Part shown: one piece after another, positions 5,158-53,130 of the stretch
How positions within the stretch are numbered: position 1 is the stretch's first letter
How the letters are laid out: every line of letters begins with the position of its first letter
Assembly: GCA_965218975.1 (NCBI GenBank)
Contig: OZ244717.1
Coordinates: 96,001-160,000, forward strand
Length of the DNA stretch: 64,000 nt
Origin: Candidatus Oxydemutatoraceae bacterium
GTDB lineage: Bacteria; Pseudomonadota; Gammaproteobacteria; Poriferisulfidales; Oxydemutatoraceae
Reading direction: 5' to 3'
Program-made: the position numbers and the translations under genes
The notes under the pieces: model-generated
Seen by the model: only the letters and a program-made list of their open reading frames with translations
Told to the model about the DNA's origin: nothing
Databases searched by the model: none

Positions 5158-5163
5158 ATTCTA
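5158..5163 (-). promoter_or_regulatory. putative -10 hexamer (TAGAAT) of rpmBG promoter
   Basis: 36 nt upstream of rpmB start and 28 nt from the IS right end at 5192. Confidence 0.55.
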
Positions 5164-5191
5164 GCAAAAAATCAATCCCGGTAATAGAGTG

Positions 5192-6348
5192 TGTACGATG
5201 CCACCCTAAATGGGATTCTTGGAGGGCTTCGGGGGAAGCGTTCGGCAGTAACATTCGGACCGGTGCTTTCTCCCCGTTGCCGACATGAGGGCGGTGCAGG
5301 GTGAGACGCGCCCGGAAAACCGATCGGTTTTCAGCGGCGAACGACCCGACAAGGACGTCGGGGCTGGCACTCATTGACAGAACCCAGTCTCGTCATGGGT
5401 GAGACGCGCCCGGAAAACCAATTGGTTTTCAGCGGTGAACGACCCGACAAGGACGTCGGGGCTGGAGCTTGTTGACAGAACCCAGTCGCGTCATGGATGA
5501 CAGGCACTTTGCCGACAATCCGGCACAATCCGCCGAAAATCCGACAACAAACACAAAACGGTTTCATAACCGGTCATTGAATGCTTCCGTATCGGCGAAT
5601 AGCAGGTCTTCTGCATGATCGATACAATCTTCTTGGACGGTGCGGTTGAAGCGCTTGATGTGCGCGTTCATTTTCGGACACTTGGGATAGGTCAGCCGTT
5701 GCTCGGTCGCAGGTGATTCCCGGATGAGCCGGGCAAACTGCCCTTGAAACTCACTGCCGCCGTCCGTCAGGGTGAGACGCGCTCGGAAAACCGATCGGTT
5801 TTCAGCGGCGAACGACCCGACAAGGACGTCGGGGCTGGTGCTCATTGACAGAACCAAGTCTCGTCATGGACGACAAGCACTTTGCCAGGTTGCGGCAGTA
5901 CCGACACTATACACGCCAGGGTCAGGCGCAGGAATGCGGCAGCACTACGGCTGTTACAGCGGTTGGTTGCCGTTGCTGTTGCCATACGGGTATAGACATC
6001 AATAGCCTATATGTTGGATTTGCAAGGCTTCTCCTCCTGTCGGCAGGAGTGCCAAATGTTTCTGAGCTTATGCATGCGAGGCGCTAGTCCCAGTGCGGCG
6101 ATAATGCCGACGCCAACGGTACAAAGTGCTGCGACCGACCTTGAATGCGTTCGGGAGTTACAACCCTCCCAAAATGAGGGCATCATATTTCTGTTGAAGT
6201 TTAGAGCACTCATGAGCCTCCATCTTTGAGGTTAAACAGGCTCATATAGAAACCTTTGATGCGGTGGCCGATGTGCTGATATTACATATTGCATATCGGT
6301 CACCTTTTTATTGAAAAGTATTTTCCGGTATGTATCTGGACACGTACA
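5192..6348 (-). mobile_element. degenerate IS481-family element, copy A; transposase pseudogene with 3 copies of the 98-bp module
   Basis: Ends TGTACGTGTCCAGATAC / TGGCATCGTACA; fragments LTDGGSEF...KMNAHIKRFNRTVQE (catalytic E changed to K); modules at 5299-5398, 5397-5496, 5770-5869. Confidence 0.85.
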
Positions 6349-6365
6349 TCAAACCCTTATATGAT
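6337..6365 (+). promoter_or_regulatory. putative hybrid promoter for folB (IS-supplied -35)
   Basis: TGGACA (inside IS end, 6337-6342) - 17 nt - TATGAT (6360-6365). Confidence 0.4.
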
Positions 6366-6393
6366 TAATCTTATTCACTGGCTTGAAGCAATA

Positions 6394-6762
6394 ATGAGTG
6401 CCATTTTTATAGAAGCACTGAAAGTTGACGTTATTATCGGTGTTTTCGAATGGGAAAAACGTATCCCCCAAACAGTGCTAATTGATTTGGAAATAGTAAC
6501 GGATTCATCGGTTGCAGCGATAAGTGACAATATCGCAGATGCTCTCAATTACAAAGATATTGCCAAAAGAGTGATGAATTTCGCCAGCGAAAGTAGATTT
6601 ACGCTAATTGAAACGCTTGCTGAAAGAACTGCTAATCTTCTAATTAAAGAATTTAAAATTTCGACTATTAAGGTAACAGTGAACAAACCAAGAGCTGTGC
6701 GTCATTCAAAAAATGTCCGTATTACCGTAGAAAAATCTGCTCATGAAGAAAGCCTTCGTTAG
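6394..6762 (+). CDS. folB: dihydroneopterin aldolase
   Basis: IIGVFEWEK..PQTVLIDLE, LNYK, LIETLAE; start taken at MSAIF (6394). Confidence 0.95.
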   Translation: MSAIFIEALKVDVIIGVFEWEKRIPQTVLIDLEIVTDSSVAAISDNIADALNYKDIAKRVMNFASESRFTLIETLAERTANLLIKEFKISTIKVTVNKPRAVRHSKNVRITVEKSAHEESLR

Positions 6763-7270
6763 CATCGGTAGCAACATCGATAAAGAGCGCAATGTTGCCA
6801 ATTGCATCAAAACTTTACATCGGACTTTCGGCGCTTTAATTCTATCTCCCGTATACGAATCAAAACCGGTCGGATTTGTCGGGGATAATTTCTACAATAT
6901 GGTTGTTGCTTTCGATACCATACTTTCGCCTCAAAAAATCCACACTTTACTGCGACAGATCGAACATAAATATCAGCGTATCCGGGGGGGGGACAAGTTC
7001 GTCTCACGAACTCTGGACCTAGATCAATTGCTGCATGATAACCTAGTCATTGAAAGTGGCCAGTTGAAACTTCCTAGCGAAGAAATTACCCGATATATGC
7101 ACGTCCTATACCCGCTTGCCGATATTGCCGGAAGTTTGTGTCATCCGATACTGGGAAAAACGTATCGCGAGTTACGTAACAAACTGAATCCGCTCATCAC
7201 GCCGGTCAATATCATTCCGTTTGAGGCAATTGAGAAAAGAACATCCTTACCCGCACGCGACACCGCCTAA
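6743..7270 (+). CDS. folK: 2-amino-4-hydroxy-6-hydroxymethyldihydropteridine diphosphokinase
   Basis: SIGSNI, SPVYES, SRTLDLD motifs; follows folB. Confidence 0.95.
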   Translation: MKKAFVSIGSNIDKERNVANCIKTLHRTFGALILSPVYESKPVGFVGDNFYNMVVAFDTILSPQKIHTLLRQIEHKYQRIRGGDKFVSRTLDLDQLLHDNLVIESGQLKLPSEEITRYMHVLYPLADIAGSLCHPILGKTYRELRNKLNPLITPVNIIPFEAIEKRTSLPARDTA

Positions 7271-8007
7271 TTACTTAACGTGCGTCCTCCATCAACAACG
7301 ATTGTTTGCCCGGTTGTATAATCTGCGTCGCAGATTAGAAAAAGCACCGCATGCGCAATATCACGCGGTTTTCCTTCTCGCTTGAGGGCGGTACGCGCAA
7401 TAATTTCACGATGCACTGCCATATACGATTCCTGCTCCGGCCATAAAATAGCGCCAGGCGCCACCGCATTACAACGTACTTGCGGAGCAAGTTCACGCGC
7501 CAACGCTTTAGTCAATGCGACTAATCCCGCTTTGGCGACCGAATATGCCGAATATGTCTTCAGTGGTCGGTCGGTATGAATATCCGTGATATTAACGATA
7601 CAGCCTCTGCGTTTTTTTAATTCGTTAGCAAAATATTGTGTAAGAAAAAAAGGCGCTTTAATATGTACGCTCAGCATTTCATCCCATTCTTGCTCGGTCG
7701 CCCGCATCATCGGCGTCGGATAAAATGCCGAGGCATTATTGACTAACACGTCAATGCCTCCCCAATGTGCAACCGCTTCTCGCGCTAATTCCCGCAACGC
7801 AGACGATTGCAATAAGTTTGCCCGAATGACATGCGCCGAATCTGCCCGTTTACCGTTCAACGATCGACTGATTTCTTCAACCTCAGAAACGGAGTGGCGA
7901 CAATGCAACAAGACTTTCATACCTTCGTTATGCAACGCCACTGCTATTTCAGCACCGATGCGCCGTCCCGCACCGGTAATCAAAACTACTTTATCTGACG
8001 CTCTCAT
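7267..8007 (-). CDS. pteridine reductase (SDR, FolM/PTR1-like)
   Basis: TGAGRRIG, NNAS, YSVAK; next to folB/folK. Confidence 0.9.
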   Translation of the reverse strand: MRASDKVVLITGAGRRIGAEIAVALHNEGMKVLLHCRHSVSEVEEISRSLNGKRADSAHVIRANLLQSSALRELAREAVAHWGGIDVLVNNASAFYPTPMMRATEQEWDEMLSVHIKAPFFLTQYFANELKKRRGCIVNITDIHTDRPLKTYSAYSVAKAGLVALTKALARELAPQVRCNAVAPGAILWPEQESYMAVHREIIARTALKREGKPRDIAHAVLFLICDADYTTGQTIVVDGGRTLSN

Positions 8008-8072
8008 CCCTATTATTGTGCTTTACTTTGAAGAAAGATTAAAATCAATCATAATAGCCTTCTTCGTTCCTC

Positions 8073-8858
8073 ATGGATTTTATACAGGCAATTACTTTAT
8101 CTTTGGTTCAGGGCCTTACTGAATTTTTGCCGATATCCAGTTCGGCACACCTAATTTTATTTTCAAAGCTAGCCGGTTGGAAGGATCAAGGTGTCGCTTT
8201 TGATGCTGTAGTTCACTTTGGAACATTAACCGCAGTGGTTTTTTACTATCGTGCCACTTTACTGAATAACTCAATCACCAACATCTTGCCGACCAAACAC
8301 CATCCTTTGCTACTCGTCGGTATCGCCAGTATCCCCATTTTTATCGTTGCTTACCAGTTTGAATCAATTATTACATCACAACTACGCACTCCTTTGATCA
8401 TTGCCGGTTCAACCATCTGCTTTGGGCTGCTACTTTGGTTAGCGGACTACGTCGGCAAAAAAGGCAATCCAAGTAACACAATCATCACCGTTCCGTATGC
8501 TTTATTGATTGGTATTGCGCAGATATTAGCTTTGATTCCCGGCACTTCGCGTGCCGGTATAACATTAACAGCGGGTTTATTGCTTGGCTTATCACGCACT
8601 CACGCGACACATTTCTCTTTTCTATTGGCAATTCCAACCATTGCCGCCGCCGTTTTGTACGAGGGACTTAAACTTTCTGCCGTGCCCGATACCGATATTC
8701 AGCTATTATTGGTATTGTTGCTAAGTTTTGCGCTATCTGCTTCTGTCGCACTTTTAACTATTCACTTTTTTCTTGCTTTGGTTGAAAAAATCGGGATGCT
8801 GCCATTTGTCATTTACCGCATTGTTCTCGGCAGTATCCTACTTGTTTTGTTCGGATAA
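8073..8858 (+). CDS. uppP: undecaprenyl-diphosphate phosphatase
   Basis: QGLTEFLPISSSAH and PGTSRAG motifs. Confidence 0.97.
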   Translation: MDFIQAITLSLVQGLTEFLPISSSAHLILFSKLAGWKDQGVAFDAVVHFGTLTAVVFYYRATLLNNSITNILPTKHHPLLLVGIASIPIFIVAYQFESIITSQLRTPLIIAGSTICFGLLLWLADYVGKKGNPSNTIITVPYALLIGIAQILALIPGTSRAGITLTAGLLLGLSRTHATHFSFLLAIPTIAAAVLYEGLKLSAVPDTDIQLLLVLLLSFALSASVALLTIHFFLALVEKIGMLPFVIYRIVLGSILLVLFG

Positions 8859-9992
8859 ATCGGATAAAAAATTATTCAACGCTCGTATTTGCTCCGTTTC
8901 CACCATTATTTTAATCTCCCGAGGGTTATCGTGTTTCAATGCACTGCTCAAATCGGCATGGATAACTTTATGTAACGCCGAATAGATCAACTCACAGACC
9001 GGCGTGCCACGATAGGCATCAAGGTGCGACGGTAACGCACACATTCGCCATACCGGCATTAACATACCCAATCGCTGCGGATTTCTTAGCAAATCATTTT
9101 GCTTAAAAAAGTTAAACAGAGACTCGGCGCTAAAATCTGCGCTGGTTTTCGTCAGTTTATAAAGCTGTGGCATCACTCTGGTTAGTTGCCGATAATTTTT
9201 TGGCGCTTTTAATCCGGCACACCATTCATCAAGCAACAAATCCGCCGCCGCCGCCCAACTTACGAGCACCGCAAAACTGACCTCAGCTTTCCCCTTGGAT
9301 GCGGCGCCGCTCAACGCATTGGCAAGCAATTTCTCAAGCGACAATTCTCCGAATAGAATGTCCAATTCGGCGGCAATAATTTCCAAAGTATTCGTATCTT
9401 TCAATGTACGAAAAAATGCCGCCGGCGCCGGTGTGATAAGCGCTGCGGTTAATTCTTTCCATATACGTTCGGGAACCAGCGTTGAAATCTCGCTTTTAAC
9501 GCTCATCGTCCGCATCAACTCAAGCGTATCGTCGGCGATATAAAACCCTTTCGGTTGAAATCGCGCAAGAAAACGCGCGATGCGTAATACCCGTACCGGA
9601 TCTTCGGCAAAAGCGGGCGATACATGCCGCAGAACTCCTTTGTGCAAGTCATCCAGCCCGCCGAACGGATCAATTAATTCGCCTTCATCGTCTACCGCCA
9701 TTGCGTTAATTGTCAAATCGCGTCGCCGTAGGTCCTCTTCCAAAGTCACATCAGGTCCGGCATGAAAAACAAACCCATGATAGCCTTTTCCGGTCTTACG
9801 CTCAGTTCTTGCCAATGCGTATTCTTCTTTTGTCCGAGGGTGCAAAAATACCGGGAAATCCTTGCCTACCGGCTTAAAATTATGCTCTATCATGACTTCA
9901 GGCGAAGCATCAACCACGACCCAATCGCGCTCGTTTACCGGCAAGCCGAGCAGTTTATCGCGCACTGCTCCACCAACAAGAAAAACTTTCAT
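8838..9992 (-). CDS. cca: tRNA CCA-adding enzyme (short form, HD domain apparently absent)
   Basis: LVGGAVRD, EYALARTE, RRDLTINAMA, EDPVRVLR. Confidence 0.95.
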   Translation of the reverse strand: MKVFLVGGAVRDKLLGLPVNERDWVVVDASPEVMIEHNFKPVGKDFPVFLHPRTKEEYALARTERKTGKGYHGFVFHAGPDVTLEEDLRRRDLTINAMAVDDEGELIDPFGGLDDLHKGVLRHVSPAFAEDPVRVLRIARFLARFQPKGFYIADDTLELMRTMSVKSEISTLVPERIWKELTAALITPAPAAFFRTLKDTNTLEIIAAELDILFGELSLEKLLANALSGAASKGKAEVSFAVLVSWAAAADLLLDEWCAGLKAPKNYRQLTRVMPQLYKLTKTSADFSAESLFNFFKQNDLLRNPQRLGMLMPVWRMCALPSHLDAYRGTPVCELIYSALHKVIHADLSSALKHDNPREIKIMVETEQIRALNNFLSDLSEQNK

Positions 9993-9996
9993 TGAA

Positions 9997-10857: not shown

Positions 10858-10959
10858 TACATTATTCTACAATATGCAATATGACAGAAATTCTCGTTCA
10901 TTTAGGTATGGCATTATCCGTATTATTTCCTAAACCTTGATTTCAAGCAAATATTCACT

Positions 10960-13968: not shown

Positions 13969-14065
13969 TTATTGTCTCAGACACTTGGTACTCGAAAATA
14001 ATCTTTTCTGATCAAGATTAAAAGATTAAAAAAGGCTAATCTGCAAAAGCGCCGACCCTCCGCTC

Positions 14066-15653
14066 TGTATAATGCCAGATACATATGGGACTCACGGCTT
14101 AACTCGAAAAGATGACCGATATGCAATATCAGCACATCGGCCACCGCATCAAAGATTTCTATATGAGCCAATTTTGCTTTAAAAATAGAGGCTCATGAAC
14201 ACAACGGCTCAACAGAAACACGATGCCATGTTATTTTGGAGGATTGTAACCCTAAACGCATTCAAGGTCGGTCGCAGCACTTTGTCCCGTTGGCGTCGGC
14301 GTTATCGCCGCACTGGCCTCAGCGCCTTGCATGACCGCGGCAAAGCGCCGCGCAAGAGGCGTCGGCGGGTCTGGCTGCAACCCGGCAAAGTGCCTGTCGT
14401 CCATGACGAGACTTGGTTCTGTCAATGAGCGCCAGCCCCGACGTCCTTGTCGGGTCGTTCGCCGCTGAAAACCGATCGGTTTTCCGGGCGCGTCTCACCC
14501 TGCTCGTCCATGACGAGACTTGGTTCTGTCAATGAACCCCAGCCCCGACATCCTTGTCGGGTCGTTCGCCGCTGAAAACCGATCGGTTTTCCGGGCGCGT
14601 CTCACCCTGCCCGAGTGTCCGCACGATTGCGCGCCTGATCGCGGATGCGCCGGATAAAATGCGCTGTATTCCGCAGCGGCTGAATGCCAAAGGACAAACA
14701 AAACGACCGTTTAAGCGCCGTTGCAGGGCACGCAAGCCGAAACACTTCAAAGCACAGTATCCGGGGCATTGCATCGCCCTGGATACGATTGTGCGTTATC
14801 AGCACGGAGTGCGCCGCACCATCTTAACGGCCATCAATGTCCATACCCGAATGGCAATAGCAGTGGCAACCAACCGCTGTAACAGCCGCAACGCAGCCGC
14901 ATTCCTGCGCCTGACCCTGGCGTGTATAGTGTCGGTACTGCCGCAACCTGGCAAAGTGCTTGTCGTCCATGACGAGACTTGGTTCTGTCAATAAGCACCA
15001 GCCCCGACATCCTTGTCGGGTCGTTCGCCGCTGAAAACCGATCGGTTTTCCGAGCGCGTCTCACCCTGACGGACGGCGGGAGTGAGTTTCAAGGACAGTT
15101 TGCCCGGCTCATCCGGGAATCACCCGTGATTGAGCAGTGGCTGACCTATCCCAAGTGTCCAAAAATGAACGCGCACATCAAGCGCTTCAACCGCACCGTC
15201 CAAGAAGATTGTATCGATCATGCAGAAGACCTGCTATTCGCCGATACGGAAGCATTGAATGACCGGTTATGAAACCGTTTTGTGTTTGTTGGTGGATTGT
15301 CGGCGGATTGTGCCGGATTGTCGGCAAAGTGCCTGTCGTCCATGACGAGACTTGGTTCTGTCAATGAGCGCCAGCCCCGACGTCCTTGTCGGGTCGTTCG
15401 CCGCTGAAAACCGACCGGTTTTCCGGGCGCGTCTCACCCTGCTCGTCCATGACGAGACTTGGTTCTGTCAATGAGCGCCAGCCCCGACGTCCTTGTCGGG
15501 TCGTTCGCCGCTGAAAACCGATCGGTTTTCCGGGCGCGTCTCACCCTGCACCGCCCTCATGCCGGCAGCGGACAGAAAGCACCGATCCGAATGTTACTGC
15601 CGAACGCTTCCCCAGAAGCTCTTCAAAAATCCCATTTAGGGTGGCATCGTACA
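14066..15653 (+). mobile_element. degenerate IS481-family element, copy B; 5 copies of the 98-bp module at three sites
   Basis: Ends TGTATAATGCCAGATACATATGGGA / TCCCATTTAGGGTGGCATCGTACA; HTH (RSTLSRWRRRY), ALDT and LTDGGSEF fragments; modules at 14401, 14508, 14967, 15340, 15447. Confidence 0.9.
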
Positions 15654-15658
15654 TTATA

Positions 15659-15686
15659 TTGCTATTTTTTTTTTCTAATGTAGAAT
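15659..15686 (+). promoter_or_regulatory. putative trxA promoter
   Basis: TTGCTA - 16 nt - TAGAAT, starting 5 nt after the IS right end. Confidence 0.55.
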
Positions 15687-15755: not shown

Positions 15756-16085
15756 TTGAGTGACAATATTATTGAACACATCACAGATGGCGATTTTGAA
15801 CGAAGCGTACTGCAATCGGACATTCCCGCTTTAGTGGATTTCTGGGCATCGTGGTGCGGACCATGCAAAGCTATCGCTCCGATACTAGAAGAAATTGCGG
15901 TGGATTACAAAGGAAAACTTAAAATTTTAAAACTTAACGTTGATGAAAATCGCAAAAATCCCGAACAATACGGTATTCGCGGCATCCCGACCTTGATAAT
16001 TTTTAAAAATGGTAATGCCGAAGCGACCCACATCGGCGCCCTTACTAAATCGCAACTAACCACTTTTATTGATCAAAATATATAA
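15756..16085 (+). CDS. trxA: thioredoxin
   Basis: WCGPC active site; upstream of rho. Confidence 0.97.
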   Translation: MSDNIIEHITDGDFERSVLQSDIPALVDFWASWCGPCKAIAPILEEIAVDYKGKLKILKLNVDENRKNPEQYGIRGIPTLIIFKNGNAEATHIGALTKSQLTTFIDQNI

Positions 16086-22382: not shown

Positions 22383-23999
22383 TGCATAGTGCCGGATACA
22401 TACCGGACAAATACTTTTCAATAAAAAGGTGTGTATAGTGCCAGATACATATGGGACTCACGGCTTAACTCGAAAAGGTGACCGATATGCAATATCAGCA
22501 CATCGGCCACCGCATCAAAGGTTTCTATATGAGCCAATTTTGCTTCAAAAATAGAGGCTCATGAACACAACGGCTCAACAGAAACACGATGCCCTGTTAT
22601 TTTGGGAGGATTGTAACTCCCGAACACATTCAAGCTCAGTCGTAGCACTTTGTATGCCTGGCGCAAGCGTTATCGCCGCACTGGGCTCAGCGCCTTGCAT
22701 GACCGCGGCAAAGCACCGCGCAAGAGGCGTCGGCGGATCTGGCCGCAACCTGGCAAAGTGCCTGTCATCCATGACGAGACTTGGTTCTGTCAATGAGCGC
22801 CAGCCTCGACGTCCTTGTCGGGTCGCTTGCCGCTGAAAACCGATCGGTTTTCCGGGCGCATCTCACCCTGCTCGTCCGTGATGAGACTTGGTTCTGCGAA
22901 TGAACCCCAGCCCCGACATCCTTGTTGGGTCGTTCGCCGCTGAAAACCGATCGGTTTTCCGGGCGCATCTCACCCTGCCCGAGTGTCCGCACGATTGCGG
23001 CCTGATCGCGGATGCGCCGGATAAAATGCGCTGTATTCTGCAGCATCTGAATGCCAAAGAACAAACAAAACGACTGTTCAAGCACCGTTGCAAGGCACGC
23101 AAGCCGAAACACTTCAAAGCACAGTATCCGGGGCATTGCATCGCCTTGGATACAATCGTGCGTTATCAGCACGGGGTGCGCCGCACCATATTAACGGCCA
23201 TTGATGTCTATACCCGTATGGCAACAGCAGCGGCAACCAACCGCTGTAACAGCCGTAGTACTGCCGCATTCCTGCACCTGGCAGAATTTCGGCAGCAGTA
23301 AAGTCTTTGAGCTGATGAAACCATTTTGTGTTTGCTGCCGAATTGTCGGCGGATTGTGCCTGTCATCCATGACGCGACTGGGTTCTGTCAACAAGCGCCA
23401 GCCCCGACGTCCTTGTCGGGTCGTTCACCGCTGAAAACCAATTGGTTTTCCGGGCGCGTCTCACCCATGACGAGACTTGGTTCTGTCAACAAGCGCCAGC
23501 CTCGACGTCCTTGTCGGGTCGTTCACCGCTGAAAACCAATTGGTTTTCCGGGCGCGTCTCACCCATGACGAGACTTGGTTCTGTCAACAAGCGCCAGCCC
23601 CGACGTCCTTGTCGGGTCGTTCGCCGCTGAAAACCGATCGGTTTTCCGGGCGCGTCTCACCCTGACGGACGGCGGTAGTGAGTTTCAAGGACAGTTTGCC
23701 CGGCTCATCCGGGAATCACCCGCGATTGAGCAGTGGCTGACCTATCCCAAGTGTCCAAAAATGAACGCGCACATTGAGCGCTTCAACCGCACCGTCCAAG
23801 AAGATTGTATCGATCATGCGGAAGATCTGCTATTCGCCGATACGGAAGCATTCAATGACCGGTTATGGGAGTATTTAGCCTGGTATAAGCTGCACCGTCC
23901 TCATGTCGGCAACGGACAGAAAGCACCGATCCGAATGTTATTGCCGAGCGCTTCCCTCGAAGCTCTTCAAAAATCCCATTTTTAGGGTAACATCGTACA
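22383..23999 (+). mobile_element. degenerate IS481-family element, copy C; stacked left ends (22383, 22432) and 5 modules at two sites
   Basis: Retains D (ALDT), D (LTDGG) and E (HIERF) but is frameshifted and interrupted; modules at 22769, 22876, 23367, 23465, 23563; right end CATCGTACA. Confidence 0.9.
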
Positions 24000-24028
24000 C
24001 AAAATCCACTATCAGCGTATTTTCCCGG

Positions 24029-24034
24029 TATAAT
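24029..24034 (+). promoter_or_regulatory. putative -10 hexamer (TATAAT) of cytochrome c5 gene
   Basis: Perfect consensus 40 nt before the probable start and 29 nt after the IS right end. Confidence 0.6.
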
Positions 24035-24074: not shown

Positions 24075-24578
24075 ATGAGCGACAAGCAATTTATAAATAT
24101 ATTCTCTATCATTATTGGAGCATTAATCGGCATCACGGCGTTGATACTTATTGCCGCTACTTCGCTTTCATCCATCCATGCTGAAATGGATCTTGCCATG
24201 AGACATAGTATGGAAGAACACTTATCTCCCATCGGGAAAGTTCATATCGGATCGGTAGTAATGACAGGTCAGGACGTTAAACGATCCGAACCAGCCGATT
24301 CGCTACAAAACGTAACGAATCCATCTGCAGATCAAACAATGGATGGCAGAAGTGTCTATAACACAGTCTGTTCTGCTTGCCATTTAGCCGGCGTTGCCAA
24401 TGCACCGATTTTTGGGAATAAAGCAACATGGGCGCCGCGCATTTCTCAAGGAATTGAAACACTCTACACATCGTCATTAAACGGTAAGGGCGCAATGCCC
24501 GCCAAAGGCGGACGCACCGACTTACCGGATAATCTTATCAAAAGTGCCGTTGATTACATGGTTGAAGCGGTCCGTTAA
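24075..24578 (+). CDS. cytochrome c5 family protein
   Basis: N-terminal membrane anchor, CSACH heme motif, MPAKGG. Confidence 0.92.
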   Translation: MSDKQFINIFSIIIGALIGITALILIAATSLSSIHAEMDLAMRHSMEEHLSPIGKVHIGSVVMTGQDVKRSEPADSLQNVTNPSADQTMDGRSVYNTVCSACHLAGVANAPIFGNKATWAPRISQGIETLYTSSLNGKGAMPAKGGRTDLPDNLIKSAVDYMVEAVR

Positions 24579-39819: not shown

Positions 39820-39848
39820 ATGATAATAAAACACCGCAAAGTACGCAA
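39820..39848 (-). promoter_or_regulatory. putative rpmE promoter
   Basis: TTGCGT - 17 nt - TATCAT, starting 5 nt from the IS right end. Confidence 0.6.
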
Positions 39849-39853
39849 CTTCC

Positions 39854-40468
39854 TGTACGATGCCACCCTAGTGGGATTCTTGAAGAGCTTCTGGGGAAGC
39901 ATTCGGCAGTAACATTCGGATCGGTGCTTTCTGTCCGTTGCCGGCATGAGGACGGTGCAGGGTGAGACGCGCCCGGAAAACCGAACGGTTTTCAGCGGCG
40001 AACGACCCGACAAGGACGTCGGGGCTGGGGTTTATTCGCAGAACTAAGCTTCGTCATGAACGACAAGTACTTTGCCGGGTTGCGGCCAGATTCGCCGGCG
40101 CCTCTTGCGCGGCGCTTTGTCGCAGTCATACAAGGCACCGAGACCAGTGCGGCGATAACGCCAGCGCCAGCGGTACAAAGTACTGCGACCGACCTTGAAT
40201 GCGCTCGGTGACATCCGATCTGTAGTTTCCCCTGAAACAGCAAGCCGATTACCGATCGGCAGGAAACATCGTGTGTGCATTTAGTCCGTGTTTCTCCCAA
40301 AATGAGGGCATCATATTTCTATTGAGCCGTTGTGTTCATGAGCCTCCATTTTTGAAGCAAAATTGGCTCATATAGAAACCTTTGATGCGGTGGCCGATGT
40401 GCTGATATTGCATATCGGTCACCTTTTTATTGAGGTCCGAGAATCCGGTATGTATCCGGACACGCACA
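39854..40468 (-). mobile_element. internally deleted IS481-family element, copy D, with one 98-bp module (39960-40059)
   Basis: Both termini present; the WPQP segment joins the LHRPH segment through a single module. Confidence 0.85.
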
Positions 40469-40563
40469 CACGGTAAAACCCCCGGATGCGATAGCCTATA
40501 TATTGGATTTGCAAAGCTGCTCCTCCTGTCGGGTGGAGTGCCAAATGTTTCTGAGCTTATGCA
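40469..40563 (-). mobile_element. left end of a second IS481-type element (also found inside copy A at about 6003-6073)
   Basis: TGCATAAGCTCAGAAACATTTGGCACTCC end, GGAGG RBS, start of ORF (M)QIQYIGYRIRGFY paralogous to MQYQHIGHRIKGFY. Confidence 0.7.
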
Positions 40564-44426: not shown

Positions 44427-44447
44427 AAACCATGCTGCGGCAGGTGG

Positions 44448-44783: not shown

Positions 44784-45081
44784 AGATGACTTCAACGGAA
44801 TCTAGAATCGCCTTCCGGCGAATGTAGTTATGGCTTTGCTCCACGGATGTACGTGTCAGAACATCCACTCGTCTACCGAACAAGTCTGATAACTCAGAGG
44901 CTATACCGACAAACTTCAACCCCGGCGTATGACCTGGCGCAAACTCTACCAGTATGTCAATGTCGCTCTCCGGTCCGAAATCTTTTCTTAATGCTGAACC
45001 AAAGATCGCAAGCTGGGCTATGCCGTTTGCACGACAGAACTCAGCAACGCGGTCCTTTGGAATGTACAAGTCCGGATTCAT
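44773..45081 (-). CDS. MntA-like minimal nucleotidyltransferase antitoxin
   Basis: FGSALRKDFGPESDIDILVEF (GSx10DxD); overlaps the HEPN start. Confidence 0.9.
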   Translation of the reverse strand: MNPDLYIPKDRVAEFCRANGIAQLAIFGSALRKDFGPESDIDILVEFAPGHTPGLKFVGIASELSDLFGRRVDVLTRTSVEQSHNYIRRKAILDSVEVIYAA

Positions 45082-45243
45082 GCTTTTGAAACCCCCAACT
45101 CTGGCATTCGGTCCCACGTTTGGTTGCACAATACCTCCCCCTGCCATGTTCAATCTTCATATCTTTCACTTTCATTCATCTGCCCTCCTTCATAGACGCC
45201 CCTGTAGTGCTGCTCTACAGCCTTCAACCTGCGTTTGATCAGA

Positions 45244-46182: not shown

Positions 46183-46183
46183 A

Positions 46184-46195
46184 TGGCATCGTACA
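46184..46195 (+). mobile_element. isolated IS481 right-end 12-mer TGGCATCGTACA
   Basis: Identical to the terminal 12 nt of copies A, B and D; lies at a gene/pseudogene junction. Confidence 0.6.
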
Positions 46196-46492
46196 GTCCC
46201 TTTTTGATGACATCAAATTCAAATATGATTGAGAAATTAAAATCCGCCAAACCTAAGAGTTCCCCTTCAAGATCACCTATAACTTGCAAATACCAGTCGT
46301 TATTTCGGCGTTGGTTTTCAACACTGTCAATACTCGTATACCCAATGGCTCACGGGCCTGCTATCGCACAATATCCTTGGTCCGGCGGTTCTCTTTATCA
46401 GGCCATCGTTCTACTTGCAGCTTGGAATAACCTTGGCTGCAAAAGAAGGTAACAACCGCTTCAATTACGTCACTGTCATCGTGCTTATCCAT
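46196..46492 (-). pseudogene. decayed hypothetical gene truncated at the IS end
   Basis: Manual translation MDKHDD...VERWPDKENRRTKDI / AIAGP*AIGYTSIDSVENQRR with one frameshift and one stop. Confidence 0.45.
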
Positions 46493-46552
46493 GGTGCCTA
46501 TCAAATGTGCGGCAGTTCAGGTGAGGGCTTCACTAAATAGTTGCTCCAACTT

Positions 46553-49500
46553 TTACCGGACCTTTACTCCGGTATCAAATGGTTCCGGCAAGCTCCCGAC
46601 GATACTCACGGTTACAACGCTTACATGCACAATTCGACGAATCGCCGCAATCAGGTCTCTTGAGTCATAAAACCAGCCGTTAGGATCATTCACGATACCG
46701 CTATGTGTATCCTTGGCTATCCTGTAGCGGTCAATGAACCATCCAAGTGGAGTGCGGCCATTAACTTCATAGTGATGTGCTTCAGCGGGGACCCGTTCCA
46801 GACGGACATAGTCGTTAACTATAAGTGTTGATTTTTCGTCATCGGCAAACCGCATGGCTTTACGTCCGATCTGAAAATGTTCCGGTTGTGGTTCTCCGGG
46901 CTGTGTATACACGACTTCAAGCGGATGCTCCTCACACGTTTCATAACCCAGGTGAAGTTCGGCAAGTTTTTTTCCGGCTTCTGCAAAGGCATGAAAATCC
47001 GGGGCCATCGGGACACGCGGCAAATCCTTGGACAAATCATTGGCAAATTGTTCTCGATAGGCGGGTGCATGAAGGACACCGTAAACGTAATAGAAAATCG
47101 TGTCCTTGCTGATTGTGTTGTCATTGTAATGAATACGAAATTTCTTGAGCGTGACGTCAGTGATGTTATCAATGCGCTTCGGGTCATGCGTGTCCGCCAA
47201 TAGTTCGCCCTGCTTTTCTTCCTTTTTTTGCTCATACCGGTATCGAGGGAAACATTGGCCATTAAACATCAATTGAATATCCGGCATTGTATCTACCATA
47301 AGAACACAGAACGGCTTGGTTGAACCGATGCCCGGCACGCAGATCACCCGATTTTCGCTGTCGGAAGTTGGGAAGATGCGATCCATCTGGTACTTATTAC
47401 TCACAAATACATATTCGATGTAACAGTGCTGTTTGACGAAAGGTCGATATTGTGTCGTCCAGATCTTGTCTGTCGAATACGCCACAGCTTTCTGTCTGCG
47501 CAAGTTGTTTTTTAACTCCCGGTCCCACCTCATATTCGAAGAATGCTGGCTAGCAACCTTATCTACTGTGTACTCAGGATGTTCTTGGCGAACCTGCAAC
47601 GCACCCAGATAATCGTTCGCCATATTTTGTGCATTCTCTGCGCAGGCATTGCGGGAAAAGTTGTAGGTGTACGCGTCACGGCTGGTCTTATAGCCATTGC
47701 TATATAGCTTGAATACTGCATCACTTATCCTCCCTGCTTTCGCGTCTTTTGACCCCAAAGGATAAAACGCCTGAAATGCTTCATCACGCTGACCAATCCA
47801 GTCGTTATGCTGCCGATCCGGTTTGATTTTTTGCCAGTCCTTAATGCCAGAAATTGAGCCTGCTTCCCGCAGAATTTTCAGCTTTCCCTCGCGCTTCAGA
47901 TAATCCCCGATATCTCGGTACAGGATGCGACATCCCCCATCACTAGCATTCGGATTCGGATTGCGCGCCAGAATCACAATACCTACAGTTGCACTAGAGC
48001 CTTTGCCGAACACAGGCCCCCCTTCTGCACGTCCACGTTCACCTCCTTTCCATGTGTGACCACGCAAATTCAATACGTAAATTGAGTTGAACTCCTCTGC
48101 AAGACAGGCACGTACCCCTGAATCTACATTCCCATCAATCCACGAACCATTCGTTACAAACGCGACGACACCCCGCTCGCCAATCCGATCCGAAGCCCAA
48201 CGGATCGCCATTTTGTACGTGTCATAAAGGCTGTTTTTGTTAGTTGACTTGGACCGGTCAGCAAAAGTTTCGGTGACCCTCGTAGCAATCTCTGGATAAG
48301 CAATGTTTGGATTATCATCCGCTGAACTCCTCTGACCAGCTCGCCAAGGAGGGTTACTAACAATCACCTGAATCGGCAGCTTCTGCTGGCGCTCCGCGCG
48401 CGCGCTATTGTCCGGTAACCAGTCCTTCGGAAAGCTCGCACGCTCAGTATGAAGATTGAACGTGTCCGTCAGAACAATGCCGCCGAACGGCTCATAGTCA
48501 CTCTCGGTACCACGTCTGCCATGAAATGCTTCCTCGATATGAACGGCTGCAATGTAGTAGGCCAGCAAAATGATCTCGTTGGCATGAAGCTCTGTACGGT
48601 ACTTCCTGACCAGATCGCCATCTCGGATCAGTTGTGACTGCAATAGACGCACCAGAAAGATGCCGGTGCCGGTGAACGGATCCAGGACATGCACGCCTTC
48701 ATCGCTTAACGAACGTCCGAACTCGTTACGTAACACCTCATCCGCACTAGCCAAAATGAAATCAACAATCTCCACCGGTGTGTAGACGATGCCCAGCCGG
48801 TCCGCATCCTTTTTCATCGCTGTAGCGAAGAACTTCTCATACAGCTCCATCAGCACCCGCTGGCGTGCCGCACTATTGTCCAGGCCTTGCGCGCGCATCC
48901 GTACACTTTCATAGAAGCTTTCCATGTCACGTATTTCATTCTCCAGCCCGAATTCCCCAAAATCCTTCCTCAGGGAATCAAGTGCCCGGGCCACCGGATT
49001 GCCTTCTGCAAAATTGTATTGCTCGAACAGGGCCTCGAAGACAGGGCGCGTCAGGATGTGCTGGGCCATCATGTGAATGGCGCTGTCACGGGTAATGGAA
49101 TCATTGATCGAGACTTTCAGTTCCTTATGGAACGCCCCGAACCACTCGCATAAAGTGTCATTTTCAGGATCATTAAGCAGCCCTTCAATCCGTGCAATCA
49201 GGCGTGAGAAGATATGAGCCACGTCCTTGGCCCAGGTTTCCCAGTACTTACGATCTCCACACTTCTCGACAATCTTTGCAAAGATTGCACCGGGCGGCAG
49301 ATCAAGAAGCGGAAAAGCCAGCTGTGCAGAAGAAACATCTCCTTCCTCAGACCATTTACCACCACTGAAGATAATCCGGCTTGTCGGGGTGTTGTTGAGG
49401 TCAATCTGGTTGATCTCGGCATCCAGTCGGTCATCGTGGGAGCGCAAGGCCTGCAACACATCCCAGACAACGGCATAGGTTTCGTTGTCATTCAGTGCTT

Positions 49501-51307
49501 CTGCAGGATCGATATCTACCGGCACGGCAATCGGGAGAATGATGTACCCATATTCTTTTCCAGGGGCCTTGCGCATCGCGCGCCCCACTGCCTGCACGAT
49601 ATCCACATGCGATTTGCGTGCACTCATGAACAACACTGCATCCAGCGCCGGCACATCAATCCCTTCAGACAGACACCGCGCATTCGTGAGAATACGGCAG
49701 GTTCCGTTTGTATCTTTCTTCAACCATTCAATCCGGGCCTTCCTGTCGAGCGCATGGTGCTGTCCATCAACATGCTTCACTTCACATCGGAATGCCTTGG
49801 AAGAGTCCTCCTTAGGGAGCAAGGCAATTGCCTGTTCGATCACGCTATCCCAATGCGCTTCCAGCCGTTGGGATGATCGGATCGTGTTCACAAATGCAAT
49901 CGCACGACGCAAACGGTGGGCTCCACCAGCATTAAGAGGTTTGTCTTCCGGGTTCTGCAAAGCCTGCCAGCAACCCACAATCTTTGCCGCATCAGAAAGG
50001 TTGATCTCGCTGTCTTGCGCGGCCAAATGCTCCTGTAGGGCAGCATCTACCTGCTGTTCGGATATGGCAAGTACCACCACCTTGTAATCGGACAACAGGT
50101 TCTGCTCCACTGCTCTTGAGAAAGGCAGGCGATGAAACTCGGACCCGTAGGTCTCCGGATCGTCCATGGAAAAAACTTCCATGTCATGACTGGCGGCCCT
50201 GGACTTGGCGCTTGCCGTATACAGTCGTGGGGTAGCAGTCATGTACAGACGCTTGGCCGCACGAATCCGCTGTGCATCATGGACCAGTACGAATGGTGAG
50301 GTCTTGTCACCGGGCCGGTCCACACCGGTCGTGCGATGTGCCTCGTCACACAGAATGAGGTCAAAGGCCGGTGCCCCTTCATCTTGGGCACTTTCGACCA
50401 AAGGAAGCGAATGGTAGGTGCAGAACACAACAGTCATTGCATCTGCAGATGCATTCTGCAAAGCCCTGGATATTGCGGTGGGGTCGGTCGTGACCGGAAT
50501 CTCCAGTTCCCGAAGCGAGGCATCCTCATTGATTCGACCGGCCCGTGTATCGGAACAGATTCCAATGTATCGGTGTGGTATGGCCCGTTGTTCAGCCCAC
50601 TCGCGCATCGCCTGCTGGAACAGGGAAATTGAGGGTACCAGGAAAAGTGCCCGGCCACCGATGCCTGCAGCGGATTCGGCAATGCGTAATGCAGTGAAGG
50701 TCTTGCCGGTCCCGCAAGCCATAATCAGCTTGCCGTGGTCCTGCCCGGAAAACCCGTTCAGCACGTCGTCAAATGCAGCCTGTTGATGGGGTCTAAGACT
50801 GAATGGCTCAGCACGGTATGAAAGTGACTCCGGGTCTTGATGTACCAGGTCCGGCCAGTCGAACGGACGGCTCGCCAGATCACCGAAACGAAGTACATTG
50901 CAGGCAGGTTGTAATCGATCAAGGGCCTTCCTTGCATTCGGCCCCCATTCATCCCCTGTGTCCACAACCATGCGCGCCGTGAACGGTTCGCGAGCCGAAG
51001 CTGAAATGAATGAATCAAGATGTGTTTTCGATATCCGCGTACCCGGTGCATAGCACTTGCACTGAATAGCGCAATAACCGCCTTGACGCTCTTGCGTGAC
51101 CAGATCTATACCCGTGTCACTTCCATCGTAGTCCGGGCGTATCTGCGCCCATTCGGACCACAGCCAGACATCACTGAACCGGTCCCGATAGACCGGGTCC
51201 TGCTTAAAGTAGGCCTTCATCAGTCTTTCAAACAGGCGACCTTTTCCCAATTCTGAATCGGCTATGGATCGGATATGATTCAGTGCTTGCCGGAAACTTT
51301 CAGCCAT
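46553..51307 (-). CDS. type ISP restriction-modification enzyme (LlaBIII/LlaGI-like)
   Basis: Mrr-type nuclease (GIDLV...IQCK), SF2 helicase (MACGTGKT, DEAH), N6-methyltransferase (LDPFTGTG, NPPW), C-terminal TRD; 1584 aa. Confidence 0.93.
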   Translation of the reverse strand: MAESFRQALNHIRSIADSELGKGRLFERLMKAYFKQDPVYRDRFSDVWLWSEWAQIRPDYDGSDTGIDLVTQERQGGYCAIQCKCYAPGTRISKTHLDSFISASAREPFTARMVVDTGDEWGPNARKALDRLQPACNVLRFGDLASRPFDWPDLVHQDPESLSYRAEPFSLRPHQQAAFDDVLNGFSGQDHGKLIMACGTGKTFTALRIAESAAGIGGRALFLVPSISLFQQAMREWAEQRAIPHRYIGICSDTRAGRINEDASLRELEIPVTTDPTAISRALQNASADAMTVVFCTYHSLPLVESAQDEGAPAFDLILCDEAHRTTGVDRPGDKTSPFVLVHDAQRIRAAKRLYMTATPRLYTASAKSRAASHDMEVFSMDDPETYGSEFHRLPFSRAVEQNLLSDYKVVVLAISEQQVDAALQEHLAAQDSEINLSDAAKIVGCWQALQNPEDKPLNAGGAHRLRRAIAFVNTIRSSQRLEAHWDSVIEQAIALLPKEDSSKAFRCEVKHVDGQHHALDRKARIEWLKKDTNGTCRILTNARCLSEGIDVPALDAVLFMSARKSHVDIVQAVGRAMRKAPGKEYGYIILPIAVPVDIDPAEALNDNETYAVVWDVLQALRSHDDRLDAEINQIDLNNTPTSRIIFSGGKWSEEGDVSSAQLAFPLLDLPPGAIFAKIVEKCGDRKYWETWAKDVAHIFSRLIARIEGLLNDPENDTLCEWFGAFHKELKVSINDSITRDSAIHMMAQHILTRPVFEALFEQYNFAEGNPVARALDSLRKDFGEFGLENEIRDMESFYESVRMRAQGLDNSAARQRVLMELYEKFFATAMKKDADRLGIVYTPVEIVDFILASADEVLRNEFGRSLSDEGVHVLDPFTGTGIFLVRLLQSQLIRDGDLVRKYRTELHANEIILLAYYIAAVHIEEAFHGRRGTESDYEPFGGIVLTDTFNLHTERASFPKDWLPDNSARAERQQKLPIQVIVSNPPWRAGQRSSADDNPNIAYPEIATRVTETFADRSKSTNKNSLYDTYKMAIRWASDRIGERGVVAFVTNGSWIDGNVDSGVRACLAEEFNSIYVLNLRGHTWKGGERGRAEGGPVFGKGSSATVGIVILARNPNPNASDGGCRILYRDIGDYLKREGKLKILREAGSISGIKDWQKIKPDRQHNDWIGQRDEAFQAFYPLGSKDAKAGRISDAVFKLYSNGYKTSRDAYTYNFSRNACAENAQNMANDYLGALQVRQEHPEYTVDKVASQHSSNMRWDRELKNNLRRQKAVAYSTDKIWTTQYRPFVKQHCYIEYVFVSNKYQMDRIFPTSDSENRVICVPGIGSTKPFCVLMVDTMPDIQLMFNGQCFPRYRYEQKKEEKQGELLADTHDPKRIDNITDVTLKKFRIHYNDNTISKDTIFYYVYGVLHAPAYREQFANDLSKDLPRVPMAPDFHAFAEAGKKLAELHLGYETCEEHPLEVVYTQPGEPQPEHFQIGRKAMRFADDEKSTLIVNDYVRLERVPAEAHHYEVNGRTPLGWFIDRYRIAKDTHSGIVNDPNGWFYDSRDLIAAIRRIVHVSVVTVSIVGSLPEPFDTGVKVR

Positions 51308-51550
51308 GGGTAAAAATCAGAGGACAGTTACGTGTTTGACGAAGCAATAAAAGGGGCATACATCTCTTCCGAGCGAAAAGCGTTATTGTATTGGTTTCCG
51401 TAACCTTTGTTTACCTAAATTTCATTTTGCGAGTGATGGCATGAAACACGTCATTATAAATGGCGTGGGAACTTCATCACCCGGGTATTTGGCAGTACGT
51501 CTGATTGATGCCTGCGAGTTAAACAATCAAAGAACAGACAAAAAACCACG

Positions 51551-51669
51551 CCGGTTTCTGTAACGGTTTTCCATTGACGCTGATTCCCGATTCTGTTTGG
51601 GTCGCACCAGTGATCTGTGGCGACTGCATGACCTGGTCGCAACAAGTCCTTTGCCGGTATTCCAGTGAA
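51551..51669. repeat. diverged repeat of about 120 bp; partner at about 56385-56500 (decayed gene fragment)
   Basis: Shared ATTCCCGATTCTGTT...GATCTGTGGCGACTGCA...GTCGCAACAAGTCCTTTGCCGGTAT. Confidence 0.8.
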
Positions 51670-51690
51670 TGTATAGTGCCGGACACATAC
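51670..51690 (+). mobile_element. isolated IS481 left-end fragment
   Basis: TGTATAGTGCCGGACACATAC matches the left ends at 22383/22432 and truncates the repeat at 51551-51669. Confidence 0.7.
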
Positions 51691-51922
51691 AATTCGTCTA
51701 ATGGGATGACTCGCCTCTTGCGGGTCCAGATAAAGCAGCCTACAGTCGTCCCTGGTCATGGCACGCAGGCCATATATGCAGCTTTGTTGATTTTTCTGTG
51801 TCAGCCTAAAATTTTTCGGACAACCTGCTTAAAAAATCAATTGCGTCATTGAAGCTTGCCGGATCCTGTGATTTGGCATAGGACATCCTCGAAACAAATT
51901 GTTCATACTCCACTTTATACAT

Positions 51923-52357
51923 TCATCGCGGCGCCAAAAGTTCGTCCACGTGCTTTGCTACTTCTCGCGCAACTCGTAACAATGCGGCGACGAGTTGTTC
52001 GTCTATTTCCATTGCGCCTTCGTACTCAGCAAGGTTGCGCTTGCGGTGGGCATGGTCCAGTACACGCCACTGCTCCCGAGGCAGATTGATGGTGTGTTGC
52101 AGGCATTGAAAGACCAGATAACGCGAATCGGAGCGGTAGCCTTGCGTTCGCAAAGCTGCGAGCGCGAGCGCATGGGCCGCGTTGTAGCCAAGGTCAAAAC
52201 GGCTCTCCAGGCTCAAGTCCTTTCTTCCGGCATCGTCAAGGCGGCGTAAGCCGGAACGAAACAGACCCTCGATTTCCTCCTCCACGGCCAGCTCCGCCTT
52301 GAGTTGACCGATGCGCGCCAGATTATCGAGTTGCTGATTTGTCGTTTTCTTTTCCAA
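51923..52357 (-). CDS. HEPN-like toxin partner
   Basis: RFDLGYNAAH...HRKRNLAEYEG; translationally coupled to a nucleotidyltransferase. Confidence 0.7.
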   Translation of the reverse strand: MEKKTTNQQLDNLARIGQLKAELAVEEEIEGLFRSGLRRLDDAGRKDLSLESRFDLGYNAAHALALAALRTQGYRSDSRYLVFQCLQHTINLPREQWRVLDHAHRKRNLAEYEGAMEIDEQLVAALLRVAREVAKHVDELLAPR

Positions 52358-52988
52358 TGAGCACCAGACGTTCGCCGGCGAACACCCGGGTCAGGAAGGT
52401 GTTTCCGGCCGATCGTCGAGCGTTGAACTCCTGCACCGTATAGAGAATGGGGCTGATCTTGCGGTCAAGGCTCGATTCCACAGGAGCAAGCGCGGTGTAG
52501 AGATCTTCCAGCATCATGCCGTCAGCGGTGACGAGCAGATCTATATCGCTGTCTGCCGTATCTGTGCCATGCACGACGGAACCGTAGATCATAGCCAGCG
52601 TAATGCGGTCGGCAAAAGGCTCCAGCGCCTGCCGGATCGGCTCAACCATGGCAACTGTTTTGCGCACGATGCCAACTAGTTCGTGATACACGGGACCGGC
52701 GGGATTGGCCTTGTAATGCTTCTGCGTTCCGATTGAGGTAACGTTCACCAGCCTGCTGGAGGCCAAGCGCTGTAGCTCGCGCTGCACAGCTCCGGAACCG
52801 GAGCCGGTCAGCTCGATCAACTCACTGGTAAAAAAGCTCCGGTCGGGCTGGCCGAATAGTAGGGCCAGAACCCGCTGCTGGGTGGTGGTGAAGAGCGCAT
52901 CGGCGAGACTGGTGGGTGTACCGACGTGCTCAGCCGCCGTCTTGCGGCGGGTCGGCCGCGACAGGCGTGTTGGTGTTGATATGCCCAT
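52323..52988 (-). CDS. HTH + nucleotidyltransferase antitoxin
   Basis: SLADALFTTTQQRVL HTH region; YGSVVHGTDTADSDIDLL; start set at MGIS. Confidence 0.85.
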   Translation of the reverse strand: MGISTPTRLSRPTRRKTAAEHVGTPTSLADALFTTTQQRVLALLFGQPDRSFFTSELIELTGSGSGAVQRELQRLASSRLVNVTSIGTQKHYKANPAGPVYHELVGIVRKTVAMVEPIRQALEPFADRITLAMIYGSVVHGTDTADSDIDLLVTADGMMLEDLYTALAPVESSLDRKISPILYTVQEFNARRSAGNTFLTRVFAGERLVLIGKENDKSATR

Positions 52989-52995
52989 AATGGGT

Positions 52996-53025
52996 ATTCT
53001 AATGCCTGATCCGGGCAATATGCAA
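52996..53025 (-). promoter_or_regulatory. putative promoter of the HTH-MNT/HEPN operon, with operator-like palindromes
   Basis: TTGCAT - 18 nt - TAGAAT; palindromes CCCATAATGGG (52984-52994) and TGCCTGATCCGGGCA (53003-53017). Confidence 0.55.
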
Positions 53026-53130
53026 TGTGTGTATAAGTCCATAACATTTAGCACTCCGGCGGCACTTCGGGTGGTGAGTCAAAAGCGATTGTATCGGGGA
53101 CTGCAACCCCAGTGAATGTCAGTGAATAAT

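Follow-up and report, generated by a model that had tools for sequence, protein, structure and literature searches.

The 64,000-nucleotide (nt) stretch analyzed here (hereafter the window) belongs to the single-contig, 2,081,000-bp genome of a Candidatus Oxydemutatoraceae bacterium (OZ244717.1). It carries degraded copies of an IS481-like insertion sequence (IS) of the ISKpn28 type, the right ends of which stand at a fixed distance upstream of sigma70-type promoters. The same register was found at right ends throughout this genome, at intact relatives in other genomes and in Escherichia coli, and we are nearly certain that it reflects oriented transposition targeted to sigma70/sigmaA promoters. 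The whole explanation that we favor, in which the ISKpn28-type clade transposes specifically into such promoters under the guidance of RNA polymerase holoenzyme, is given a probability of about 0.6. Insertion is oriented, with the transposase gene reading toward the promoter, and the −35, the −10, and the downstream gene are left intact. A reading of the window made earlier from the letters alone (the original prediction) had listed six sites in which a −10-like hexamer begins 27–29 nt beyond a terminus, three of them with a TTG-type −35 (TTGCTA and TTGCGT after 5 nt, TTGCAT after 4 nt), and had proposed that the element lands in one orientation just upstream of the −35 without damage to the promoter. 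All six sites, with their hexamers and gaps, are as it described, and the proposed landing is borne out by 5-bp target duplications and by a signal confined to right ends. Its fixed distance upstream stands, with one refinement of the geometry: the 5-bp duplication directly abuts the −35.

Promoter Register at Right Ends in the Source Genome

Right ends were collected genome-wide with a 30-nt right-end probe allowing up to six substitutions, which returned 85 ends with 83 distinct flanks. Flank position 1 denotes the first nucleotide outside the right end of the element, and random positions outside open reading frames (ORFs) of the same genome served as the baseline for flank statistics. The matrix built from the 83 flanks describes a sigma70 promoter in fixed register, with T/TTG at positions 6–8 and TATAAT at positions 29–34. 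T occupies position 6 at 59 of the 83 ends and TTG occupies positions 6–8 at 25 (2.3% at random positions), TATAAT is matched at no fewer than five of six bases at 34 (2.0% at random positions), and TAnnnT starts at positions 28–30 at 47 (4.8% at random positions; binomial P about 7e-40). The original prediction had called for such a comparison of ends with random intergenic positions, naming a lack of enrichment as the outcome that would refute it; enrichment was found. The positional profile is sharp: −10-like hexamers begin at position 29 at 35/83 ends, and elsewhere (outside 28–30) never at more than 10. With an alternative probe, the 12-mer of the original prediction at up to one mismatch (109 ends, 106 distinct), a −10-like hexamer was in register at 58/106 ends, against a background of 6.2%. 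Chance as the source of the register is ruled out by the genome-wide enrichment together with the positional profile.

Left ends read outward gave promoter signals at only 5/47 and 1/47. The 43 ends collected for a 1.9-kb IS that is unrelated, yet resident in this genome, had no positional peak (at most 4/43 −10-like hexamers and 3/43 TTG). This control element (for example, 417711–419628; 13 full copies, 15-nt terminal repeats TCTTGACTTCGTAGG, and a 574-amino-acid ORF) makes long target duplications of tens of bases, and one of its copies lies inside an IS481-like copy.

A maximal ORF of at least 100 amino acids starts 30–300 nt beyond the end at 26/51 ends that have a −10, compared to 18% of random positions; the same test gave 9/32 for ends without a −10 and 13/47 for left ends. 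Maximal-ORF starts replaced an earlier downstream-ORF criterion that held for 71% of random positions. Three identical flanks (genome positions 842098, 880374, and 1839328) were considered as rRNA promoters, an idea abandoned after neither Rfam nor ARAGORN detected any rRNA or tRNA in the 4 kb surrounding one of the three.

Intact Relatives and the Geometry of Insertion

A search of 41 related genomes revealed intact relatives in other genera of the family, with transposases 44–51% identical in open frames of about 355–385 amino acids and elements of 1081–1142 bp; the hosts include sponge-associated metagenome-assembled genomes (MAGs) of Candidatus Porisulfidus and Candidatus Oxydemutator(aceae). 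Five related genomes of the same family supplied 39 copies, for which 38 distinct sites were analyzed: T stands at position 6 in 35, and TAnnnT starts at 28–30 in 31, 20 of them from position 29. Further copies were found in other phyla, with transposases 40–44% identical; across the intact relatives as a whole, transposase identity is 40–55%. In a Nitrospirales MAG with 19 copies of a 1087-bp element, TTG occupies positions 6–8 at 15/19 sites and TAnnnT is in register at 16/19. Pooling the 38 sites of the relatives, the 19 of Nitrospirales, and 14 from E. coli UTME-14 (discussed below) gave 71 intact-element sites. TAnnnT is in register at 60 of these, T is at position 6 at 65, and TTG follows the same register at 42, an outcome in line with the original prediction, which had proposed related genomes as a check. 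The spacer measures 17 bp at 46 of the 60 in-register sites, with 16 and 18 bp tolerated, and an extended −10 TG signal is seen at flank positions 26–27. In each of four independent sets of sites, TTG is most frequent at flank position 6, and −10-like hexamers most often start at 29.

The layout at the intact relatives is a 5-bp duplication, a −35 hexamer, a 17-bp spacer, and a −10. Perfect 5-bp duplications are present at 31/38 sites of the relatives, 10/19 in Nitrospirales, and 12/14 in UTME-14, and several copies in the source genome retain theirs (CCCTT, TCTAT, ACTGA, ACTTA, GCGCC), which correspond to flank positions 1–5. The −35 therefore starts directly after the duplication, and it follows that the right end lies 5 nt before the −35 and 28 nt (27–29) before the −10. 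Perfect duplications that bracket intact copies indicate that transposition, and neither selection nor chance, produced the arrangement.

Targets include promoters of real genes, namely those ahead of rpmB, trxA, rpmE, tRNA genes, and 16S rRNA operons, and promoters within coding sequence are targeted too. In one betaproteobacterial MAG, two copies precede 16S rRNA genes by about 350 nt, and in another, one copy lies 50 nt before a tRNA-Ala gene. An N5-TTGACx layout was recognized by inspection, in one or a few copies each, in Uhrbacteria, another Patescibacteria MAG, Dokdonella, Rhodanobacteraceae, Zetaproteobacteria, betaproteobacterial MAGs, Binatia, Multivoradales, and Oceanospirillales. 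A promoter with the duplication AGCTA, TTGCAT, and TATAAT is occupied in each of two genomes from one genus group, by elements of two IS families with transposases about 80% identical, reflecting either an old common insertion or independent hits on one hot spot.

The ISKpn28 Group in E. coli and Klebsiella pneumoniae

A plasmid protein search returned 2191 records annotated by RefSeq as "IS481-like element ISKpn28 family transposase," about 40% identical over the full length. One plasmid copy is followed by the duplication ATGAG and then by TTGTAT and TGtTAAAAT; another, widespread plasmid copy has no duplication and no obvious promoter. With the last 300 nt of ISKpn28 as the query, relatives were found in 1086 of 5426 complete E. 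coli genomes, at 697 chromosomal places. E. coli UTME-14 holds 14 copies of a 1096-bp element that are 100% identical over the 300 nt searched and, being essentially identical, must be young. All 14 sites are promoter-like: TTG occupies positions 6–8 in 12 (the remaining −35 slots are GTGACA and ATGATA), and TAnnnT is present in 13, in 12 of them starting at position 29. Annotated neighbors include rnpB, a tRNA pair, sthA, ppiC, prophage genes, and hok loci. The copy at rnpB stops 42 nt short of the annotated RNA 5′ end. In K-12 the site is empty and reads as a single GCGGG, GTGACA, a 17-nt spacer, and TATACT, after which the RNA begins 7 nt further on. The rnpB −35 overlaps the stop codon of garK, so this insertion cannot be attributed to an affinity for intergenic DNA. 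Five of the 14 copies in NZ_CP157090.1 are at very similar promoter-like sites (..GGCTAnnnT, then TTGTTTGG-like), one of them beside hokA. The available part of PMC13733257 lists K. pneumoniae ISKpn28 sites upstream of hok/gef genes too, and hok-locus promoters may be favored as targets.

Transposition of ISKpn28 in K. pneumoniae was reported from a parent–derivative comparison, with 5-bp repeats and 10-nt flanks for 11 loci, and the authors stated that an insertion-site preference "could not be determined" (PMC13733257, available part). On re-reading those 11 loci, we found TTG directly after the repeat in six and T in nine. One de novo copy lies inside nlpD, where the repeat GGTGG is followed by TTGCTTCACA (same table of PMC13733257). 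The homologous nlpD codons of K-12, GTT GCG TCG, contain TTGCGT, 17 nt before TATTCT. From this TATTCT it is about 7 nt to the point that precedes the rpoS start codon by 567 nt, 567 nt being what we take to be the length of the rpoS leader. The published coordinates place the insertion about 703 nt before rpoS (PMC13733257, available part), which agrees with the E. coli distance after the 95-nt longer nlpD–rpoS spacer of that strain is added. By our reading of these sequences, the nlpD insertion would lie 5 bp upstream of the −35 of the rpoS promoter.

How the Promoter May Be Found

The insertion point lies at about −37 to −41, the place at which class II activators contact sigma region 4. 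We propose that the transpososome selects the promoter in the form in which RNA polymerase holoenzyme holds it, and that it would dock there in a class II activator-like manner, next to sigma region 4 and the DNA of this interval. It would itself prefer the T that opens the −35 hexamer, and the two hexamers would not be read by the transposase alone. Holoenzyme as the guide is the likeliest mechanism, at somewhat better than an even bet. A more specific picture, in which an integrase-fold transposase is tethered to promoter-bound holoenzyme as a prokaryotic counterpart of Ty3/Tf1 that evolved independently of TnGBS, could equally well be right or wrong. At sites with a poor −35 (at most two of six matches), the −10 is still in register in 13/38 cases in the source genome and 10/14 in the relatives, compared with a background near 6%. 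Although 23 bp away from the cut, the −10 thus adds positional information of its own, for which holoenzyme would be the simplest reader. The sequence data favor a role for RNA polymerase: the logo matches that of sigma70 in full, TGn included, 17-bp spacers predominate, and the targeting recurs in phyla that have nothing but the sigmaA promoter consensus in common.

Alternatively, the transposase might read a bipartite promoter-like sequence, with T/TTG beside the cut and TAnnnT two helical turns further on, or the intrinsic shape of promoter DNA, directly through its N-terminal helix-turn-helix domains, without RNA polymerase. The T at flank position 6 is near-invariant (65/71), more constant than the first −35 base in promoter compilations, which suggests that the transposase itself directly contacts at least one base. 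The protein does carry HTH_28/HTH_29/HTH_32 domains, the same target logo across phyla would also be expected from host-independent readout, and off-promoter insertions exist (PMC13733257 Table 3 and PMC6101004, available parts). However, direct readout would demand that the transposase copy the whole specificity of sigma70, that is, the −35, the 17-bp optimum with 16–18 tolerated, the extended −10 TG, and the −10. Sites with a poor −35 hold the −10 register nonetheless, and by eye the terminal repeats are unlike the target. We regard direct readout as the less likely mechanism, although it is a serious competitor of holoenzyme guidance.

Several observations weigh against targeting by holoenzyme or limit its reach, the constancy of T at position 6 being one of them. 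Thirty-six of the 83 flanks in the source genome have no −10 in register, many of them nested, rearranged, or decayed, and targeting is not absolute. In the K. pneumoniae table, 5/11 loci have no TTG, including two of the three in coding regions, and our re-reading assumes that its "right flank" column is given in the orientation of the element (PMC13733257, available part). The nlpD/rpoS assignment rests on a by-eye codon alignment of 25 nt from that table with E. coli, together with a leader length of 567 nt. Lastly, ISKpn28 was found at +91 of mgrB in colistin-resistant isolates under colistin selection (PMC6101004, available part).

Near-random insertion followed by purifying selection, such that only harmless copies upstream of promoters survive, might be entertained given that the host genomes are small and gene-dense and that the copies in the source genome are old. 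We consider it very improbable. A single-nucleotide register with the duplication abutting the −35 is beyond the reach of selection, the young E. coli copies are at promoter-like sites in 14/14 cases, the de novo nlpD event and the rnpB event fall within coding sequence, yet at promoters, and the other IS of the same genome shows no register. Least probable of all is that the element carries or creates the promoter, whether outward-facing, hybrid, or part of the mobile unit. Elsewhere in the IS481 family outward promoters have been described (ISRme5; PMC4803752, available part), but here the −35 and the −10 are both external to the duplication and vary from site to site, the K-12 empty sites already have these promoters (rnpB and the rpoS promoter), and left-end flanks do not carry them. 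A circle-junction promoter, combining a −10-like TAnAAT at positions 3–8 of the left terminus with a −35 from the right terminus, was considered and rejected, as by eye no −35-like hexamer was workably spaced.

Relationship to Known Systems

The original prediction had assigned the elements to IS481. NF033577 (IS481) is indeed the best-matching profile for four intact relatives, but at 164–192 bits it falls below the 224-bit cut-off, with IS3 second at 92–125 bits. The IS481 family is characterized by a short target duplication and imperfect terminal repeats beginning TGT. The intact relatives agree with the IS481 type in having N-terminal HTH_28/29/32 plus rve and rve_3 domains in a single ORF, in an element size within the 1–1.3 kb typical of the family, and in having termini that begin TGTA.., TGCA.., or TGAA.. 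together with 5-bp duplications. Pfam and NCBIfam gave rve/IS481/IS3-type hits only and no Mutator-like (p-MULT) transposase. IS481 proper makes 6-bp duplications at NCTAGN. Because the best match is IS481, yet below its cut-off and with a different target and duplication length, we file the elements as IS481-like, ISKpn28 group. IS481 proper and ISRme5 resemble them in the helix-turn-helix plus rve DDE transposase, the size of about 1 kb, the TGT.. termini, and, in some cases, the lack of an internal stop (PMC4803752, available part). ISRme5 itself was rejected as a clade member, as it duplicates 6 nt at its own motif and so belongs to a different group.

ISKpn28, which occurs on plasmids and chromosomes of Klebsiella and E. 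coli, is a member of the same clade, with a transposase about 40% identical over its full length and termini of the ..GGACCCATACA type. Common to the group are the 5-bp duplication and the lack of a stop inside the element, the terminus ..ATACA or ..GTACA coding for the last residues. ISKpn28 is intact and active, in contrast to the dead copies of the window; its published loci and its E. coli relative have the same promoter register as those copies.

The yeast Ty3/Tf1 integrases are guided to transcription start regions by the transcription machinery or by promoter-bound factors. Theirs are integrase-fold enzymes as well, although they serve eukaryotic retrotransposons with other host partners. 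Among prokaryotes, the closest parallel is provided by TnGBS/ISLre2 and the ISKra4 group, Mutator-like elements that insert in one orientation 15–17 bp upstream of the −35, and for which a contact with RNA polymerase was proposed but unproven (PMC3942029, available part). The likeness lies in oriented insertion beside sigmaA promoters, seen at right ends only in the clade described here. The differences are considerable. The Mutator-like transposases form an unrelated superfamily, whereas those described here are rve/integrase-like, and their insertions are 15–17 bp away from the −35, while here the end is 5 nt away with the duplication touching it. TnGBS, ISLre2, and ISKra4 occur mostly in Firmicutes and often on conjugative elements, whereas the present clade consists of single-gene IS of about 1.1 kb from Proteobacteria, Nitrospirota, Patescibacteria, and others. 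IS481 is mentioned zero times in the available part of PMC3942029. Surveys describe IS481-family elements as often juxtaposed to flanking genes (PMC13548323 and PMC9208149, available parts). The original prediction knew of no report of promoter targeting for IS481, and our search likewise found none for an IS481-type element in the literature outside subscription journals and ISfinder notes.

A Stop Codon Taken from the Target

In the relatives and the E. coli copies, the transposase frame runs to the end of the element without meeting a stop, its final codon there being the terminal ACA; a C-terminal ..W-x-x-T is coded by the terminus. Among the 39 copies of the relatives, 35 full-length frames all extend 9–1257 nt past the element end, and two truncated copies also read out past it; for the two other copies, left out of the frame count, a neighboring gene was picked instead. 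A 5-bp duplication followed by a TTGAnn −35 places an in-frame TGA three codons beyond the element end. TGA is found at flank positions 7–9 at 13/83 sites in the source genome, 5/38 in the relatives, 10/19 in Nitrospirales, and 6/14 in E. coli, and other promoters give transposase tails of up to hundreds of residues. The stop codon is thus taken from the target, and the C-terminus of the transposase depends on the promoter hit. If this is true, the length of the transposase, and perhaps its activity, would be set by the promoter into which the element has inserted. Missing stop codons in IS481-family transposases are already in print (PMC4803752 and PMC13733257, available parts).

Implications

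For Mutator-like elements, promoter targeting was described as a "unique insertion specificity" and an "unusual property among prokaryotic transposases" (PMC3942029, available part). The present findings indicate that a second, unrelated, and far more widespread group targets promoters, and does so with single-nucleotide precision. Such targeting explains how more than 100 copies could accumulate in a 2.08-Mb symbiont genome without gene destruction. It also makes the landing sites of ISKpn28-type elements in Klebsiella and E. coli subject to a testable rule, namely insertion at promoters, including intragenic ones such as the rpoS promoter in nlpD, and so bears on IS-driven regulatory change. 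Where transcript data are lacking, right ends offer free promoter annotation. If the proposal is true, each right end flags the −35 of a promoter with past occupancy in vivo, and together the ends would map promoters naturally in phyla that have not been cultured (Patescibacteria, Nitrospirota, sponge symbionts). Since intact members live in E. coli, the reconstruction of a transposase suggested in the original prediction is unnecessary, and how the transposase finds the promoter becomes directly testable, a question unanswered for TnGBS in the 2014 paper (PMC3942029, available part).

Elements and Promoters in the Window

The element of the window is a repeat with imperfect terminal repeats (left TGTATAATGCCAG.., right ..GGGTGGCATCGTACA), and its 12-nt terminus occurs 12 times in the window at up to two mismatches, against 4.4 expected. 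On the minus strand, a degraded IS481-like copy (5192–6333, upper boundary approximate) has its right terminus ..TGGCATCGTACA ending at 5192, with a perfect 12-mer at 5192–5203; its arms 5192–5403 and 5397–6017 pair with the copy at 14066–15653. The adjoining promoter (5158–5191, minus strand) has a weak −35 slot, TATTAC (5181–5186), and a −10, TAGAAT (5158–5163), 28 nt from the end, and precedes rpmB (L28, 4885–5121; Pfam). The plus-strand copy at 14066–15653 retains both termini and measures 1588 bp, its transposase being split by five units of a repeat of about 100 nt. The promoter that follows it (15654–15686, plus strand) consists of 5 nt, the −35 TTGCTA (15659–15664), a 16-nt spacer, and the −10 TAGAAT (15681–15686), with an end-to-−10 gap of 27 nt, and precedes a thioredoxin gene (trxA, 15756–16085; Pfam). 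A further plus-strand copy with both termini (22432–23999) has a mutated right terminus, TAACATCGTACA. Its promoter (24000–24034, plus strand) has a weak −35 slot, TCCACT (24005–24010), and the −10 TATAAT (24029–24034) after 29 nt, ahead of a c-type cytochrome ORF that ends at 24578 and has an uncertain start codon (Pfam).

A truncated or degraded minus-strand copy (39854–40468, upper boundary approximate, taken from its register with 54502–54627) has its right terminus at 39854. The promoter beside it (39820–39853, minus strand), with the −35 TTGCGT (39843–39848), a 17-nt spacer, and the −10 TATCAT (39820–39825) 28 nt from the end, precedes rpmE (L31, 39585–39800; Pfam). At 46184–46229 on the plus strand, a solo 12-nt right-terminus remnant (46184–46195), with no IS body upstream of it, is followed by TTTTTG and then by the −10 TATGAT (46224–46229), the gap being 28 nt. 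Solo 12-nt remnants also occur at genome positions 221241, 858146, and 1233773, some of them 5 nt after a complete right end, and may be scars of repeated insertions at one promoter that were later deleted.

All transposase copies in the source genome are broken, the longest clean piece genome-wide being 157 amino acids; this piece matches the IS481 profile best (E 1.4e-21, 77 bits) and also rve. The window copies are dead fossils of an IS481-like (ISKpn28-type) IS, and IS481-like DNA makes up 8.4% of the source genome. Every transposase copy is split by the hairpin-rich unit of about 100 nt, which forms tandem runs with spacings of 98–107 nt, in the window at 14397–14622, 14963–15081, 15336–15561, 23269–23746, and 57059–57862. 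The genome has 317 copies of this unit of at least 70 nt, 264 of them within 400 nt of IS481-like DNA, and it appears to be a small repeat with a preference for invading, or expanding within, IS481-like elements.

A second, related IS481-like type lies at 53030–54636 on the minus strand (terminus ..ATGGACTTATACA, also recorded as ..GGACTTATACA) and carries 152-nt tandem units. Its one examined right end shows the same promoter register: the promoter (52996–53029, minus strand), with the −35 TTGCAT (53020–53025) and the −10 TAGAAT (52996–53001) after a gap of 28 nt, is upstream of a nucleotidyltransferase-domain ORF that ends at 52323 (Pfam). At 6002–6074 and 40491–40563, fragments similar to the left end of yet a third type (..TGCATAAGCTCAGAAACATTTGGCA) occur nested between the other copies.

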